49,738 bases of DNA from an actinobacterium acAMD-2 (GTDB taxonomy: Bacteria; Actinomycetota; Actinomycetes; UBA12327). The translations under genes were made by a program, and so were the position numbers. The first letter of the stretch is position 1, and every line of letters begins with the position of its first letter. Below the pieces are notes generated by a model. The model saw nothing but the letters and a program-made list of their open reading frames with translations. It was not told the DNA's origin and ran no database searches. Positions 5,026 through 40,023 of the stretch are shown piece by piece. Location of the stretch: positions 1 to 49,738 of the forward strand of contig JNSE01000021.1 of NCBI GenBank assembly GCA_000754455.1, written 5' to 3'.

Positions 5026-5781
5026 CTACGAGTTCACCGCGGCCAAGAGATCATCGGCAAGTTCAGCTCGACACATCAATATGCCGCCAGTAACCGGGAC
5101 TCGTTGATTGAAGGTGAAGGCCGAACCATCCAGACGACTCACATGCAAGCCGTTAGCCAGAGCAACCGCGATTGGTGCGGCGGAATCCCACTCATTCAAA
5201 TCCGAATCATGAATGTACGCATCCACATCGCCGGTGATAACCCGAGCCGCCTTCGCACCGGCTGAACCCCACAAGACGATTTCAATAGGCATCGCTTCGC
5301 CTACAGCCTGCAAGATCTCTGGCGTGCGGCTTTGGCTTGCCACAATGCGCACGACCTGACTCGATTGTGGTGCACGGTTTACCTGTTCATCGGTGGCAAA
5401 CAGCACGCCCTGGGCTGGCAACGCAACGGCGGCAGCCGTAAGGGCACCTTGGCTGGCATCCCACAACGCAATGTGCACACCCCAGTCGATGCGCCCTTGG
5501 CGAGCAAACTCGCGCGTGCCGTCCAGAGGATCAACAATCCAGACTCGATCAGCCGTCAAGCGGGAGAGATCGTCAACTGCTTCCTCCGACAACACCGCAT
5601 CAAGCGGTCGTCGTGCTCGCATCTGGCGATCGATGATGGCCTGAGCCAAAGCATCGCCGCGGTCTTTGATCTCTTGCCCTTCATAACGAGCAAAAAGTTC
5701 ATCGCGAACAGCCAAGAGTGCATCGCCGATTTCGGTGGCTAACGCCCGAGCAAATTGAACATCGGATTCCACACTCGCCAT
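5026..5781 (-). CDS. cysQ: 3'(2'),5'-bisphosphate nucleotidase CysQ / inositol monophosphatase family
   Basis: VLSEE, WIVDPLDGTREF, GSAGAKA, EWDSAAP motifs of the FIG superfamily, CysQ-like. Confidence 0.8.
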   Translation of the reverse strand: MASVESDVQFARALATEIGDALLAVRDELFARYEGQEIKDRGDALAQAIIDRQMRARRPLDAVLSEEAVDDLSRLTADRVWIVDPLDGTREFARQGRIDWGVHIALWDASQGALTAAAVALPAQGVLFATDEQVNRAPQSSQVVRIVASQSRTPEILQAVGEAMPIEIVLWGSAGAKAARVITGDVDAYIHDSDLNEWDSAAPIAVALANGLHVSRLDGSAFTFNQRVPVTGGILMCRAELADDLLAAVNS

Positions 5782-5793
5782 TGTAGTAATCGC

Positions 5794-6372
5794 CTACTTG
5801 ACCACGTCGGTGTGAAAAGTATTTTGTGCGCTCTCTAAACCATCGCGGATCAGAGATTCCACCGAGTCGGCCGCGCGGTCTACGAGAAACTCGAGTTCCT
5901 TGCGCTCTGCGGATGCAAACGGCTTCAAAACAAATGCTGCTGGATCCATCCGGCCTGGTGGTCGGCCGATTCCAAAGCGCACTCGCAGAAATTCCCCGGA
6001 ACCGATGGACTGGCGAATCGACTTCAAACCATTGTGGCCATTGTCACCGCCGCCCAACTTCAGTCGCAAGGCGCCGAAATCGATATCGAGTTCGTCGTGG
6101 ATGACGATGATGTTTTCAATCTCGGCCTTGTAATAGTCACGCAGGCCGGCCACAGGACCGCCGGACTCATTCATAAACGATTTGGGCTTCGCGATCACTG
6201 TGCGCTGATCTGCCAGCCGGATTTCGGCTACATCGCTTCGGGACTTGTGCACTTTCCACTTCGAACCGGTGCGTCGGGCCAATTCATCCACCACAAAAAA
6301 GCCAGCATTGTGACGGGTAGATGCGTAGGTTTCACCAGGATTACCTAGTCCGACAACTAACCAAGTCGTCAT
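5794..6372 (-). CDS. pth: Peptidyl-tRNA hydrolase
   Basis: [34 protein letters not shown]. Confidence 0.97.
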
Positions 6373-6423
6373 AACTCACCTCAATGGTGTTGTGGCAAAA
6401 CTGAGCACACAAGAAAGCGGTGG

Positions 6424-7020
6424 TTACGCCTCAGCAGGTGCGGCGTCGGCTGCAGCGTCAGCGGCCGGTGCGGCAGCTTCCTCAGTTTGAGGAGCCACAA
6501 TGTGAACCACGGAAACATCACCATCGGCAGCAAGCTCAACGCCCTCAGGCAGCTTCACATCGGAAGCGTGAACCGTGGATCCAATAGGCAAACCAGCAAT
6601 GTCGACTTCAATTGAGGTCGGGATGTTGGTAGCAAGTGCGAGGACCGTGAGGTTGTCAGCGTGCTCAACCAAACTGCCAGGCTCAGCAGAGCCCACGGTG
6701 ATAACGGGAACTTCAACGATGACCTTTTCGTTGGCGTTAATCACCACGAGGTCAACATGCTCAATGATCTGACGAAGTGGGTCTCGCTGAATGGACTTCG
6801 GCAACGTCAGCTGCGTCTTGCCATCACCGAGCTGCAACTGGATCAACACGTTCTGTTGCTTCAGAGCACGCGTGAGGTCGCGACCAGGCAGGGTGATGTG
6901 GATCGGGTCGGTGCCGTGGCCATAAATGACCGCAGGAATATTGCCGTCACGGCGGATTCGGCGGGCTGCACCCTTACCGAACTCATCACGCGGCTGCGCA
7001 TCGATGCGGACCTCGGACAC
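6424..7020 (-). CDS. rplY: 50S ribosomal protein L25 / Ctc (long form)
   Basis: GKGAARRIRR..IPAVIYGHG, HVDL, C-terminal TL5 domain; prs-rplY-pth synteny. Confidence 0.96.
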   Translation of the reverse strand: MSEVRIDAQPRDEFGKGAARRIRRDGNIPAVIYGHGTDPIHITLPGRDLTRALKQQNVLIQLQLGDGKTQLTLPKSIQRDPLRQIIEHVDLVVINANEKVIVEVPVITVGSAEPGSLVEHADNLTVLALATNIPTSIEVDIAGLPIGSTVHASDVKLPEGVELAADGDVSVVHIVAPQTEEAAAPAADAAADAAPAEA

Positions 7021-37362: not shown

Positions 37363-37460
37363 TTCGGCGAGTACTACTGCGCGAATGCTCTGCACCTCTT
37401 ACCCTTAATCACGACAGCATGCTTGTCAGTACCCCCGCGCTTCAAGGAGTGAGATTCTCA

Positions 37461-38375
37461 ATGGCAACAAACCACAGCGGACGCACCCGTCAACGCAATG
37501 GCATCGCCATCGGCGAGGGCGCCATCCGTAAGATCTTTCCGGCCTTTGTGTTGTTGATGTGGATCACCGCGGGGATTTGGATTGCCAACGGTCAGTGGAC
37601 CACTCTGAACACCATCTTGGCGCTTGAGGCCCTAGCCATTTGCTCCGTGGTCTTTGTCAACTTTGTGCATGTGTTTAATTTCGGGTACGCGGCATGTGTC
37701 GTTGTTTTGAACACGACCATCTTGGTCGCCAAGGGCGCACCGTTGGGCTCCATCATCGTGGGTGGACTCCTCATGATTTATGGAATTCGCTTATTTACCT
37801 TTGTTGCTAACCGCTACCGCCACGCGTCTTATGCTCAACGCCGGGCCGGCACGGTCATCGCGCATAAGCAACTTCCATTGCCGATTAAGATTCTTCTCCT
37901 CATCAACACCGCGACCCTCATGACCTTCCACGCCATGACGACCTACAACGTGGCAACGAAGGCGGCCGATGAGGGCAACAGCGGCCTGAATGGCTGGCTC
38001 ATCATCGGAGGTCTCGTCCTTGCCCAAGGCATCGCCATCGAGGCTCGTGCGGACTACGAGAAGCAGCAAGTCAAGCGAAACAATGGTGACAAGTGGATCA
38101 GCTCAGGCTTGTTTGCTCGTACCCGTCACCCCAACTACCTGGGCGAAATCATGATGCAGGTCGGCGTCATCTTGTGTGGAATCGGTGCTGCCAGCAATTG
38201 GTACGGCTACGCGGCAGGATTCTTAGCCCCGACCTACATCATTATCTTGATGTTGTCGGCGACAACAGGTGGCGAAAAGTCCAAGCGTGACAAGTACAGC
38301 GAGGACCCCGAATTCCGTGCTTACTTGCGTCGTTCCAATGCGTTGTTGCCAAAGTTTCGCAAAGTCAACGTTTAA
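37461..38375 (+). CDS. DUF1295 / steroid 5-alpha-reductase-like membrane protein
   Basis: Multiple TMs; EARADYEK, GLFARTRHPNYLGE, Y..Y.RRSN.LLP; GGAG RBS before ATG 37461. Confidence 0.85.
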   Translation: MATNHSGRTRQRNGIAIGEGAIRKIFPAFVLLMWITAGIWIANGQWTTLNTILALEALAICSVVFVNFVHVFNFGYAACVVVLNTTILVAKGAPLGSIIVGGLLMIYGIRLFTFVANRYRHASYAQRRAGTVIAHKQLPLPIKILLLINTATLMTFHAMTTYNVATKAADEGNSGLNGWLIIGGLVLAQGIAIEARADYEKQQVKRNNGDKWISSGLFARTRHPNYLGEIMMQVGVILCGIGAASNWYGYAAGFLAPTYIIILMLSATTGGEKSKRDKYSEDPEFRAYLRRSNALLPKFRKVNV

Positions 38376-38410
38376 CTCGCACCCCGCTTCACACCATGTC
38401 TTTGACTTGC

Positions 38411-38627
38411 TAGCCTTTCGCGCATGTCATCGACGTCACAGCCTTCCGTGCACCTAGTGGTTAGGCGCCACGTTGACCTCATGCGGATTTGTTCCAGCTC
38501 GTGTTGTTGCTGTAACTAATCCGCCGTCCAAGAAAACCCTGGGCGCTGCGGCGCTTGATGGATGTTTTCTTGACCTCCTCTGTCTTTCTTGCGTCGTTGC
38601 GTCTTCCTAACTGGAGGAAACTAAGCA
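38411..38627 (+). promoter_or_regulatory. Putative cysteine-responsive attenuator leader
   Basis: Hairpin 38483-38524 over the Cys codons; hairpin 38529-38537/38564-38572; alternative partner 38585-38591; CCTCC 38574-38578 complementary to SD GGAGG 38613-38617. Confidence 0.65.
38424..38519 (+). CDS. Leaderless cysteine-rich leader peptide MSSTSQPSVHLVVRRHVDLMRICSSSCCCCN (31 aa)
   Basis: TAGCCT (38411-38416) + 7 nt + ATG; RRHVDL..R motif of actinobacterial leader peptides; TGT-TGT-TGC-TGT run just before the stop; 108 nt upstream of the next gene. Confidence 0.85.
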   Translation: MSSTSQPSVHLVVRRHVDLMRICSSSCCCCN

Positions 38628-39116
38628 ATGAGCGTTACTGACGAATACTTGAAGAACAACGAGGCCTACGCCGCGAATTTCTCAGGACCCCTTCCCCTGC
38701 CTCCATCACGCAACATCGCCGTCGTTGCCTGCATGGACGCTCGATTGGATGTCTACGGGATTTTGGGGCTTGGCCAAGGCGAATCCCACGTGATTCGCAA
38801 TGCTGGTGGAGTCGTCACCGATGACGAGATCCGCTCGCTGGCCATCAGCCAACGTCTGCTCGGCACCAAGGAAATCATCCTCATCCACCACACGGACTGC
38901 GGAATGTTGACCTTCACCGACGACGAGTTCAAGGCCGGTATCCAAGCCGAGACAGGCATCAAGCCCGAGTGGGCTGCCGAGGCCTTCCCCGATCTGGACG
39001 ACGACGTGCGCCAGTCCATCAAGCGCATCAAGAACAGCCCCTTCATTCCGCACACCGATGCGGTTCGAGGATTCGTTTTCGATGTGGCCACTGGCAAGCT
39101 CAACGAAGTCAAGTAA
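38628..39116 (+). CDS. Beta-class carbonic anhydrase, Rv1284/clade-D-like (possible COS hydrolase)
   Basis: ACMDARLD (Cys-x-Asp-x-Arg), HVIRNAGG, HHTDCGM (His-x-x-Cys), RGFVFDVATGKL; 162 aa. Confidence 0.93.
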   Translation: MSVTDEYLKNNEAYAANFSGPLPLPPSRNIAVVACMDARLDVYGILGLGQGESHVIRNAGGVVTDDEIRSLAISQRLLGTKEIILIHHTDCGMLTFTDDEFKAGIQAETGIKPEWAAEAFPDLDDDVRQSIKRIKNSPFIPHTDAVRGFVFDVATGKLNEVK

Positions 39117-39124
39117 GTCAGGCA

Positions 39125-39164
39125 GATGCGGGAATGCAATCCGAACCGGATGCATTCCCGCATC
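39125..39164 (+). terminator. Long hairpin after the carbonic anhydrase (likely terminator without U-tract)
   Basis: GATGCGGGAATGCA-A-TCCG-AAC-CGGA-TGCATTCCCGCATC: 14+4 bp stem. Confidence 0.75.
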
Positions 39165-39240
39165 ATTGCCGTGAGGCGAAAACTGGTCTCATCACGGCGT
39201 GGGTGAAATCGAGTTCACCGGCTCCCACTAAGTTTGTTGT

Positions 39241-40023
39241 GTGCAAGTACTCACCACGCTGACGTCCTTTAGCGACGACCAAGGCAACGTCATCGAATAC
39301 GACGGCATGGTCGAAGGCGAAATCAAGATCAAATTCAAAGGCAACAACAACCGCCTCACCATCCATCCTGGGGCAAAGATTCAGCGTCTCTTTGTTGACT
39401 TTGACTGCGACAACGGCGTATTGACCATTGATGAAAACTTGGGCGGCCCACCCTTTCGAGCCAACATCCGCGTTGGGCAGGACTCAACGGTGACAGTAGG
39501 CAAGAACGTCTCCGCCACCTCTGCAGTAGCCATCTCCGCTACCGAAGGCACCACGGTTGCCATCGGTGACGATGTGATGTTTGCCAGCGAAAATGAAGTG
39601 CGGGCCGACGATGGCCACCCCATCTTTGACGTACGCACGGAAAAACGTGTCAACGTCTCAAGGTCAATAACCATCGGCAATCACGTATGGGTGGCTCGCG
39701 AAGCGGTCTTGCTCGGAGGAGCAACCATCGGCGAGGGTTCGGTTATCGGTTACCGCAGTCTGGTCACCGGAAAAATCCCGAACAACTGCATTGCCGTGGG
39801 TATCCCAGCCAAGGTCGTACGAAAGAGCATCGCGTGGGAGCGCCCCCACCTTTCGCTGATCAAGCCTTATTACAAACCCGACAGTCGAAGCATCAAGAAG
39901 AGCCCGTACTGGAACGTGACCGAGGGTGACATTCAGGTAGGACCTAGGCTGACACCCAAGGCCATCCTCAAGCGCGCGCGACGGGTAGCCGGCAAGGTCA
40001 AGCGAAGGCTGCAGCGCAGGTAG
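39241..40023 (+). CDS. Hexapeptide-repeat O-acyltransferase
   Basis: IGDDVMFA, DGHPIF, ITIGNHVWV, GATIGEGSVIG, NCIAVGIPAKVV. Confidence 0.88.
   Translation: MQVLTTLTSFSDDQGNVIEYDGMVEGEIKIKFKGNNNRLTIHPGAKIQRLFVDFDCDNGVLTIDENLGGPPFRANIRVGQDSTVTVGKNVSATSAVAISATEGTTVAIGDDVMFASENEVRADDGHPIFDVRTEKRVNVSRSITIGNHVWVAREAVLLGGATIGEGSVIGYRSLVTGKIPNNCIAVGIPAKVVRKSIAWERPHLSLIKPYYKPDSRSIKKSPYWNVTEGDIQVGPRLTPKAILKRARRVAGKVKRRLQRR

Follow-up and report, generated by a model that had tools for sequence, protein, structure and literature searches.

A probable cysteine-sensing leader peptide upstream of a stand-alone beta-carbonic anhydrase gene in an uncultured actinobacterial genus

The window analysed here comprises positions 1 to 49,738 of contig JNSE01000021.1 of the actinobacterium acAMD-2, a stretch of 49,738 nucleotides (nt), and it contains a 31-codon open reading frame (ORF) located 108 nt ahead of a gene for a beta-carbonic anhydrase on the same strand. 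With a probability of about 0.7 this short ORF encodes a cysteine-sensing leader peptide of the Ms4527A/Rv2391A family, which has been studied in mycobacteria, and controls a carbonic anhydrase of the type of Mycobacterium tuberculosis Rv1284. The case is carried by homology of the peptide to a mycobacterial attenuator, by a promoter geometry common to the family and by the constraint that acts on the leader within the genus, and these are taken first. The elements on which the argument leans are the following.

38408 to 38416, plus strand: -10 element, TGC + TAGCCT (extended -10-like TGn), with TAGCCT at 38411 to 38416, ending 7 nt 5' of the ATG
38424 to 38519, plus strand: leader short ORF of 31 codons, MSSTSQPSVHLVVRRHVDLMRICSSSCCCCN, probably leaderless (sequence read, genus conservation, family membership)
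38463 to 38492, plus strand: signature codons R-R-H-V-D-L-M-R-I-C (class-wide pattern matches)
38502 to 38513, plus strand: a run of four Cys codons, TGT TGT TGC TGT, where sensing is presumed to occur (sequence read, genus conservation)
38628 to 39116, plus strand: the gene thought to be regulated, encoding a 162-amino-acid (aa) Rv1284-type (clade D, Cab-type) beta-carbonic anhydrase (Pfam PF00484, Pro_CA, E 4.5e-13)

The first-pass annotation of this DNA, made from the letters alone, had described TAGCCT-N7-ATG followed by a 31-codon ORF, with four consecutive Cys codons one codon before the stop, an RRHVDL..R motif and a beta-carbonic anhydrase downstream. The layout was confirmed to the base (38411-38519), as was the Cys run at 38502-38513; the motif proved to be the signature of the Ms4527A/Rv2391A family, and the identity of the enzyme was upheld by its matches to Pfam Pro_CA and to Rv1284 (PDB 1ylk). 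The 7 nt separating TAGCCT from the ATG at 38424 are TTCGCGC and there is no purine-rich Shine-Dalgarno sequence before the leader ATG. RRHVDLMR forms residues 14-21 of the peptide, and the ORF closes with the Cys run, AAC and the TAA at 38517-38519.

A class-wide family of short ORFs

Searches for the peptide core were made in a sample of 301 genomes drawn evenly across the class, using a back-translated RxHVD(L/F)xRxC pattern with the reversed pattern as a control. The core was found in 44 of the 301 genomes, with 46 matches compared to 2 for the reversed control. From these matches it is clear that the family core is LVxRRHVD(L/F)xRxC, the LV dipeptide being conserved though it lies outside the searched pattern, and that it is followed by Cys-rich tails (VCSAAC, VCGMSC, VCSCCC, LCGMCC and others). 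The non-Cys residues of LVxRRHVD(L/F)xRxC have been kept, through synonymous change, in a dozen or more families of the class. In genus g3 (genome G007), which belongs to the same family of genera as the source of the window, the leader ORF MAASVHLVVRRHVDLMRVCAMMCRPVA precedes sirA-cysH-cysD-cysN, and 5 of the 7 nucleotide differences between the two cores are synonymous, which argues for selection on the peptide. At one further locus (L200) four tandem in-frame copies of a 9-codon unit (VPSPAFHAA) stand just before the RRLVQRRHVDLLRVCSAAC core, a repeat expansion within a leader.

The mycobacterial-type members of the family, LVARRHVDFKRVCSCCCLP, match Ms4527A. Canestrari et al. (2020, Table S1, bioRxiv 10.1101/834739) list the Ms4527A peptide as 'VTSARNSITGSLVARRHVDKRVCSCCCLP', a form from which one letter has evidently been lost, and give the downstream gene as MSMEG_4527, ortholog of Rv2391. 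Ms4527A is 'VTSARNSITGSLVARRHVD(F)KRVCSCCCLP', ending ...LVARRHVD(F)KRVCSCCCLP, and the window peptide ends ...LVVRRHVDLMRICSSSCCCCN. In earlier work Ms4527A was identified as a leaderless, translated short ORF (Shell et al. 2015, PMC4633059; Canestrari et al. 2020, bioRxiv 10.1101/834739), and Canestrari et al. found that protein from the Ms4527 operon was below detection with cysteine and induced without it. Rv2391A of M. tuberculosis has been called a Cys-response attenuator, with ribosomes stalling at its Cys codons upon cleavage of tRNA-Cys (PMC13096801). Ms4527A/Rv2391A lies upstream of sirA (nirA) and forms part of the 'Cys ribulon' (PMC4633059; bioRxiv 10.1101/834739; PMC13096801).

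The match to Ms4527A makes the window ORF a homologue of an experimentally supported cysteine attenuator, and the kinship with mycobacterial leaderless polycysteine ORFs that was proposed at first reading has thereby found its basis in peptide homology to Ms4527A/Rv2391A. Judged from the peptide sequences, the attenuator of mycobacterial sirA is not a mycobacterial speciality but belongs to a class-wide peptide family. By analogy, a response to cysteine would be expected at the present locus as well.

The promoter geometry points in the same direction. Of 28 family loci, 22 have NANNNT at exactly -13 to -8 of an in-frame start, mostly after TGG or TGC, and across these loci the geometry was seen at 24/53 in-frame ATG/GTG candidates compared to 2/46 out-of-frame ones. 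Within the genus of the window the -10 hexamer reads TAGCCT, TAACCT or TAATCT and is always 7 nt before the ATG. The -10-like hexamer, which had been placed from the window alone as the mark of a leaderless start, is therefore in a position conserved both in the genus and in the 22 family loci. There is good comparative evidence that the family, including the window member, is transcribed from the start codon, and both transcription and translation at this locus are probably leaderless. A promoter scan around the leader found no consensus sigma-70 promoter. A near-perfect -35 hexamer, TTGACT, is present at 38402-38407 and is shared by four of the genus's six genomes (TTGGCT in G002, absent from G003); it cannot serve this promoter because it is just 3 nt from the -10 hexamer.

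Conservation within the genus

The genus (g1) was represented by six genomes, G000-G005, of which two are 100% and 93% complete; the source assembly of the window, G000, amounts to 974 kb and is 60% complete. The leader ORF is kept before the orthologous carbonic anhydrase gene in all six, where the enzymes are 97-99% identical. The leader peptides found across the genus are MSTTSQPSVHLVVRRHVDLMRMCSSSCCCCN; MSTKSQPSVHLVVRLHVDLMRMCSSSCCCCN; MSTKSLSSVHLVVRHHVDLMRMCSSFCCCCN; and MSTTSIVLVVRHHVDLMRICSSFCCCCN. The ORFs differ by an in-frame indel of 9 nt (3 codons), and variation in the peptide is limited to the N-terminal half plus three later positions. Loss of the Cys run from orthologous leaders had been named in the first-pass annotation as grounds for refutation; the run proved invariant as Cys across the genus, with a single synonymous TGT to TGC change in G005.

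Constraint was assessed with the most distant pair compared, G000 and G003. Their carbonic anhydrase genes differ at the third codon position in 60 of 162 codons (37%), and the DUF1295 gene upstream is 66% identical. The 3' half of the leader ORF has no synonymous change in 16 conserved codons (rough P ~6e-4), the 10 nt that follow the leader stop are 100% identical, and the core of a predicted hairpin further downstream (P2, described below; scored over 38540-38563, 24 nt) is 92% identical. Taken together, the lack of synonymous change, the identical post-stop nucleotides and the P2 core indicate constraint at the nucleotide (RNA) level on top of the coding constraint.

The upstream neighbour, the DUF1295 gene at 37419-38375, ends 48 nt 5' of the leader ORF. 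Synteny within the genus (G003, L086; window 39117-39600) spans the DUF1295 gene, the leader and the carbonic anhydrase gene and ends directly after the last of these; G003 does not have the hexapeptide acetyltransferase (39241-40023) as its neighbour there.

Targets of the family

The gene downstream of the leader was recorded for 25 family loci. It was sirA at 16 of them, a TauE/SafE-like permease at 4, a DAACS/TcyP-like symporter at 2, a peroxiredoxin at 1 and another gene at 2. In g3 the same leader precedes sirA, which provides sulfide from sulfite; in g1, of the same family of genera, it precedes the carbonic anhydrase gene. The picture is of a class-wide leader family that has been re-attached to different sulfur-related genes. 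At the g3 locus (L196/L227; G007 contig C1, ~141400-143100) the sirA frame downstream of the leader is split over several frames, through either assembly frameshift errors or decay of the gene.

The junction was also approached from the side of the enzyme. Besides the genus itself, 183 loci encoding the closest carbonic anhydrase relatives were collected, comprising 79 species genomes, 24 relatives and 80 metagenome contigs (L002-L080, L087-L190). The metagenome scan yielded only soil relatives with identities of at most 86% and no further sequences of the genus. Upstream sequence could be scanned at 182 of the 183 loci, one having too little of it, and a comparable ORF was found at none of the 182. 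The check suggested in the first-pass annotation, a search for the leader before homologous beta-carbonic anhydrase genes, thus found it in 6/6 genomes of the genus and at 0/182 other loci, and in the data sampled the junction of leader and carbonic anhydrase gene was confined to this genus. The same annotation knew of no such attenuator on a stand-alone beta-carbonic anhydrase, and in the literature that could be searched no description of a carbonic anhydrase among the targets of polycysteine ORFs was found.

Carbonic anhydrase genes followed by cysD and cysN in other actinobacteria showed no consistent Cys leader upstream. One metagenome contig (L158, Ga0172382_10006582) has an ORF ending ...MILNRDFGRACC* 12 nt before the carbonic anhydrase start, with cysD-cysN next; this Cys-ended ORF is a single case and could be unrelated to the leader family.

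RNA structure and proposed mechanism

Folding of the leader transcript predicted three local hairpins.

38483 to 38524, plus strand: predicted hairpin P1 (GCGGAUU...AAUCCGC), inside which lie the Cys codons and the stop; -17.4 kcal/mol, z -5.0; invariant in the genus
38517 to 38529, plus strand: stop and post-stop strand UAAUCCGCCGUCC, which forms the 3' arm of P1 and is the alternative partner of the P2 core (from conservation and folding)
38526 to 38574, plus strand: predicted hairpin P2 with the near-invariant core GGGCGCUGCGGCGCUUGAUGGAU (38541-38563); -20.5 kcal/mol, z -3.0
38591 to 38633, plus strand: predicted hairpin P3, sequestering the ribosome-binding site; -16.4 kcal/mol, z -3.0

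The outer arms of P2 differ between G000 and G003, yet they are still able to pair. In P3 the pairing is bipartite: CGUUGC (38595-38600) with GCAAUG, which includes the start codon, and UCUUCC (38602-38607) with the Shine-Dalgarno sequence GGAGGA (38613-38618); it also forms in G003 despite a different loop. The predicted cost of opening the ribosome-binding site is ~12.5 kcal/mol. The ribosome-binding site was likewise predicted to be closed, at 6-15 kcal/mol, in 14/14 other family leaders tested.

The mechanism suggested by these models is a relay from P1 through P2 to P3. The transcript would start at or beside the A of the ATG at 38424, and 70S ribosomes would translate the short ORF. When Cys-tRNA is plentiful the ribosome would pass the four Cys codons, terminate and leave, P1, P2 and P3 would all form, and P3 would lock the Shine-Dalgarno sequence and the AUG of the carbonic anhydrase gene, keeping expression off. 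When Cys-tRNA is scarce the ribosome would pause on the Cys codons (38502-38513) inside P1, which would hold P1 open and leave the post-stop strand free. The free strand would then invade the P2 core, and the displaced core strand would pair with GCGUCGUUGC, the 5' strand of P3; once GCGUCGUUGC is taken from P3 the ribosome-binding site would be released and expression would be on. Such a chain can be drawn, with UCCGCCGUCC of the post-stop strand pairing with the P2 core, and GCUGCGGCGC of the P2 core pairing with GCGUCGUUGC. The conserved non-Cys residues of the peptide raise the question of whether the nascent peptide helps the ribosome to stall. While the Cys codons of the tail are decoded, RRHVD(L/F)xR would lie ~5-12 residues behind the peptidyl-transferase centre, a position which suggests that the motif in the nascent chain may enhance stalling.

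A number of results weigh against the reading of the ORF as a cysteine-sensing leader of the carbonic anhydrase gene. The alternative helix of post-stop strand and P2 core, at a predicted -13.2 kcal/mol, does not stand out (z -0.3). In equilibrium folding the opening cost is ~12.5 kcal/mol both with and without a ribosome on the Cys codons, so that the relay would have to be kinetic; the same ribosome-placement folding applied to mycobacterial and other homologues gave noisy effects only. Covariation in P1 across the family, assessed by permutation of arm pairs, was not significant (p = 0.26), and the five distinct sequences of the genus contain almost no informative covarying pairs. The similarity of the spacer to other family leaders (blastn-short) did not rise above that of the reversed control, and an exact replacement of sirA by the carbonic anhydrase gene at the ribosome-binding site therefore remains unproven. 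There is no terminator between the end of the DUF1295 gene (38375) and the leader ORF, so that read-through transcripts, in which the ORF is not leaderless, could occur. Finally, a carbonic anhydrase is no recognised gene of the cysteine pathway.

A side observation concerns the mycobacterial-type sirA leaders (L218-L223). These have UUCAGCUGGC ~35-45 nt past the stop of the short ORF, complementary to GCCAGCUCC, whose pairing partner is the Shine-Dalgarno sequence of sirA (AAGGAGC); UUCAGCUGGC is thus a candidate anti-sequestor for the Ms4527A leader.

The carbonic anhydrase and the sulfur metabolism of the host

The enzyme of the window aligned with M. tuberculosis Rv1284 (PDB 1ylk) over residues 2-161 at E 1.2e-75, with CMDAR and HHTDCG conserved, and the zinc ligands C35, H88 and C91 as well as the D37/R39 dyad are present. 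It also matched a carbonyl sulfide (COS) hydrolase (3vqj, E 4.5e-40) and also a hydrolase of carbon disulfide (CS2; 3ten, E 8.5e-26). The gene is followed by a further element.

39128 to 39161, plus strand: strong hairpin 3' of the carbonic anhydrase gene, GCGGGAAUGCA...UGCAUUCCCGC (sequence read; no U-tract, not called by the terminator scan)

This hairpin probably closes a monocistronic unit.

The six genomes of the genus were searched for genes of sulfate reduction. None contained an NIR_SIR domain and none a PAPS_reduct domain, the latter covering both CysH and CysD; in reference genomes the same searches detected NIR_SIR in 11/14 and PAPS_reduct in 14/14. The only route to cysteine found in the genus is a cluster on contig C12 of G000 (5214-6912), whose genes, all on one strand, encode a JAMM protease, a sulfur carrier that resembles MoaD/ThiS and ends in GG, and a cysteine synthase (TIGR01136, with 350.9 bits exceeding the cut-off). 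We take this arrangement to be that of mec-cysO-cysM in M. tuberculosis. The presence of the cluster together with the lack of both domains means that cysteine could be made from reduced sulfur, and that sulfide could not be made from sulfate.

Clade D of the beta-carbonic anhydrases includes COS and CS2 hydrolases, and a fungus has been shown to grow with COS as sole sulfur source; what COS degradation does for heterotrophic bacteria is described there as unknown (PMC8209446, PMC10880591, PMC12035519). In a comparison from this literature, neither residues nor tunnel features set COS hydrolases apart from carbonic anhydrases of the Rv1284 type. At 19 of the 183 other actinobacterial loci the next genes on the strand of the Rv1284-type gene are cysD-cysN, as in M. 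tuberculosis. The leader hints that the carbonic anhydrase is an enzyme of sulfur acquisition. Its placement provides a regulatory argument that an Rv1284-type carbonic anhydrase joins the response to cysteine starvation, and this is fitted by the recurrence of the clade beside cysD-cysN, by the COS hydrolases within the clade and by fungal growth on COS. A more specific proposal can be put forward tentatively, with the odds somewhat against it: that the clade D enzyme is a COS hydrolase induced by cysteine starvation (COS + H2O -> H2S + CO2) and supplies sulfide for cysteine synthesis. The hypothesis is sharpened by a host that lacks sulfate reduction and, if true, would point towards COS as a sulfur source for bacteria unable to use sulfate.

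Alternative explanations

The alternative closest to the preferred reading retains the cysteine-sensing leader and moves the decision to transcription, as in the trp and his systems. P2 would be a weak terminator or an entry point for Rho, the role of antiterminator would fall to the post-stop strand in its pairing with the P2 core, and P1 would act as an anti-antiterminator; a ribosome at the stop would mask the antiterminator strand, whereas one stalled on the Cys codons would leave it free. The geometry is indeed classical, as the conserved strand UAAUCCGCCGUCC starts with the UAA itself and would for that reason be covered by a terminating ribosome, and the post-stop strand has a possible partner in the P2 core. 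The absence of a switch in equilibrium folding would be accounted for by a decision taken co-transcriptionally, the spacer that follows P2 is C/U-rich and G-poor and resembles a Rho utilisation site, and Canestrari et al. (bioRxiv 10.1101/834739) leave open whether their other loci act transcriptionally or translationally. However, a scan of 38200-39400 found no terminator-like site, on which ground filing the element as a classical transcription attenuator was rejected; P2 is followed by CUCCUCUG and not by a U-tract, the homologous sirA leaders likewise have no U-tracts after their GC hairpins, and the would-be antiterminator helix is no more stable than shuffled sequences (the z of -0.3 given above). 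Translational attenuation, the mode shown for Ms5788A, is favoured because of the missing terminator and of homologous leaders without U-tracts, and control at transcription is considered unlikely.

Less probable again is that the conserved peptide is itself functional, either as an arrest peptide that responds not to the supply of Cys-tRNA but to, for instance, a small molecule or redox state, or as a free, Cys-rich micropeptide with a metal-binding or trans-acting role. Unlike classical leader peptides it has non-Cys residues conserved through synonymous change, its two best-conserved cysteines are spaced C-x3-C and are not consecutive, and the same possibilities were raised by Canestrari et al. 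(bioRxiv 10.1101/834739). The peptide is, however, always encoded ~90-125 nt 5' of a sulfur-related gene with a sequestered ribosome-binding site, Ms4527 protein responds to cysteine, and Cys-rich leader peptides have been described as probably unstable (PMC13096801). A motif that enhances arrest would in any case be compatible with a cysteine-sensing leader.

A third explanation, thought very improbable, is that of an evolutionary relic: sirA-cysH-cysDN would have been lost, and the old promoter and leader left before an unrelated housekeeping carbonic anhydrase gene whose expression they now merely drive or dampen, with no link to cysteine. It draws on the lack of NIR_SIR and PAPS_reduct genes in the genus, on a sister genus that carries the leader on sirA-cysH-cysD-cysN, and on an enzyme without a textbook role in cysteine synthesis. 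A relic would not be expected to have Cys codons, stop, post-stop strand and P2 core that are more constrained than the synonymous sites of the adjacent gene, nor to stand before a member of the clade that directly precedes cysD-cysN in the 19 other loci already mentioned. Moreover, a second beta-carbonic anhydrase, 33-36% identical, is present in five of the six genomes (G001-G005) and could do the housekeeping; the 60%-complete G000 shows only the leader-linked enzyme.

That the ORF arose by chance, in a purely RNA-level element or in no element, is effectively refuted by its conservation in the genus and beyond: CCCC runs do occur ~15 times in the six-frame translation of the assembly and there is no Rfam family or Pfam match (the Rfam scan of 37900-39300 gave chance-level matches only), but six species retain the reading frame, the start, the stop and the Cys codons despite an indel that stays in frame, synonymous changes between genera and families leave the amino-acid sequence conserved, and the ORF is homologous to one that has been ribosome-profiled. 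One or two such runs are expected in intergenic DNA, and the CCCC run by itself is weak evidence of function. The leader is the only intergenic short ORF of the assembly with at least four consecutive Cys beside the stop. The only other CCC candidate, on contig C37 (23891-24117, MAPPGGAIQSLSCCCIS), was considered as a second poly-Cys leader and rejected as a spurious ORF in a duplicated tRNA 3' end/terminator hairpin.

Comparison with known systems

Like trpL of Escherichia coli and hisL of Salmonella, the leader of the window is a short ORF whose regulatory codons, specifying the end-product amino acid, come close to its end and whose stop codon abuts a strand with two alternative pairing partners. 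It differs in having no intrinsic terminator, in being probably leaderless as judged from its promoter geometry and not led by a Shine-Dalgarno sequence, in a peptide conserved beyond the regulatory codons and in its likely output, which is translation initiation.

Ms5788A/Rv0815A is a leaderless short ORF with a C-terminal Cys run and a sequestered Shine-Dalgarno sequence downstream, for which translational attenuation has been shown (Canestrari et al. 2020, bioRxiv 10.1101/834739). The window leader resembles it in the C-terminal Cys run, in a Shine-Dalgarno sequence held in a stable structure and in the proposed sensing by ribosome pausing for Cys-tRNA; there is no homology between the two peptides. 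In Ms5788A, whose mechanism has been dissected, it is the Cys-codon tract that pairs with the Shine-Dalgarno region, and a stalled ribosome therefore frees the latter directly, whereas in the window the Cys tract is predicted to pair within P1 and the Shine-Dalgarno sequence to lie in a separate local hairpin. With P1 and P3 separate at least one relay helix is needed, and equilibrium folding shows none.

Among the enzymes, none of the clade D beta-carbonic anhydrases or COS hydrolases has been reported under a cysteine leader. Rv1284 of M. tuberculosis (1ylk) is closest to the window enzyme, both being clade D and Cab-type with the zinc ligands kept, and is itself a good CO2 hydratase. The COSase of Trichoderma harzianum is alike in size (163 aa compared to 162), while that of Thiobacillus thioparus (3vqj, 219 aa) has an extra loop and a C-terminal extension that are absent from the window enzyme, with the alignment covering residues 3-110.

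The closest system overall is Ms4527A/Rv2391A. The likenesses are the peptide core LV(V/A)RRHVD(L/F)xRxC with a Cys-rich tail and stop in an ORF of ~30 codons, a -10-like hexamer 7 nt 5' of the start, and a spacer of ~110-125 nt ahead of a gene with a ribosome-binding site that is predicted to be sequestered. The Cys run is CCCC in the window leader, CCC in Ms4527A and only C-x3-C in many members of the family, and the spacer sequence of the window is not recognisably similar. Where the mycobacterial leader precedes sirA-cysH, that of the window precedes a stand-alone beta-carbonic anhydrase gene, in a small-genome uncultured actinobacterial genus. What is new in comparison with the mycobacterial system is the target, a stand-alone clade D carbonic anhydrase, the context of a host without sulfate reduction, and the extension of the family and its promoter geometry across the class.

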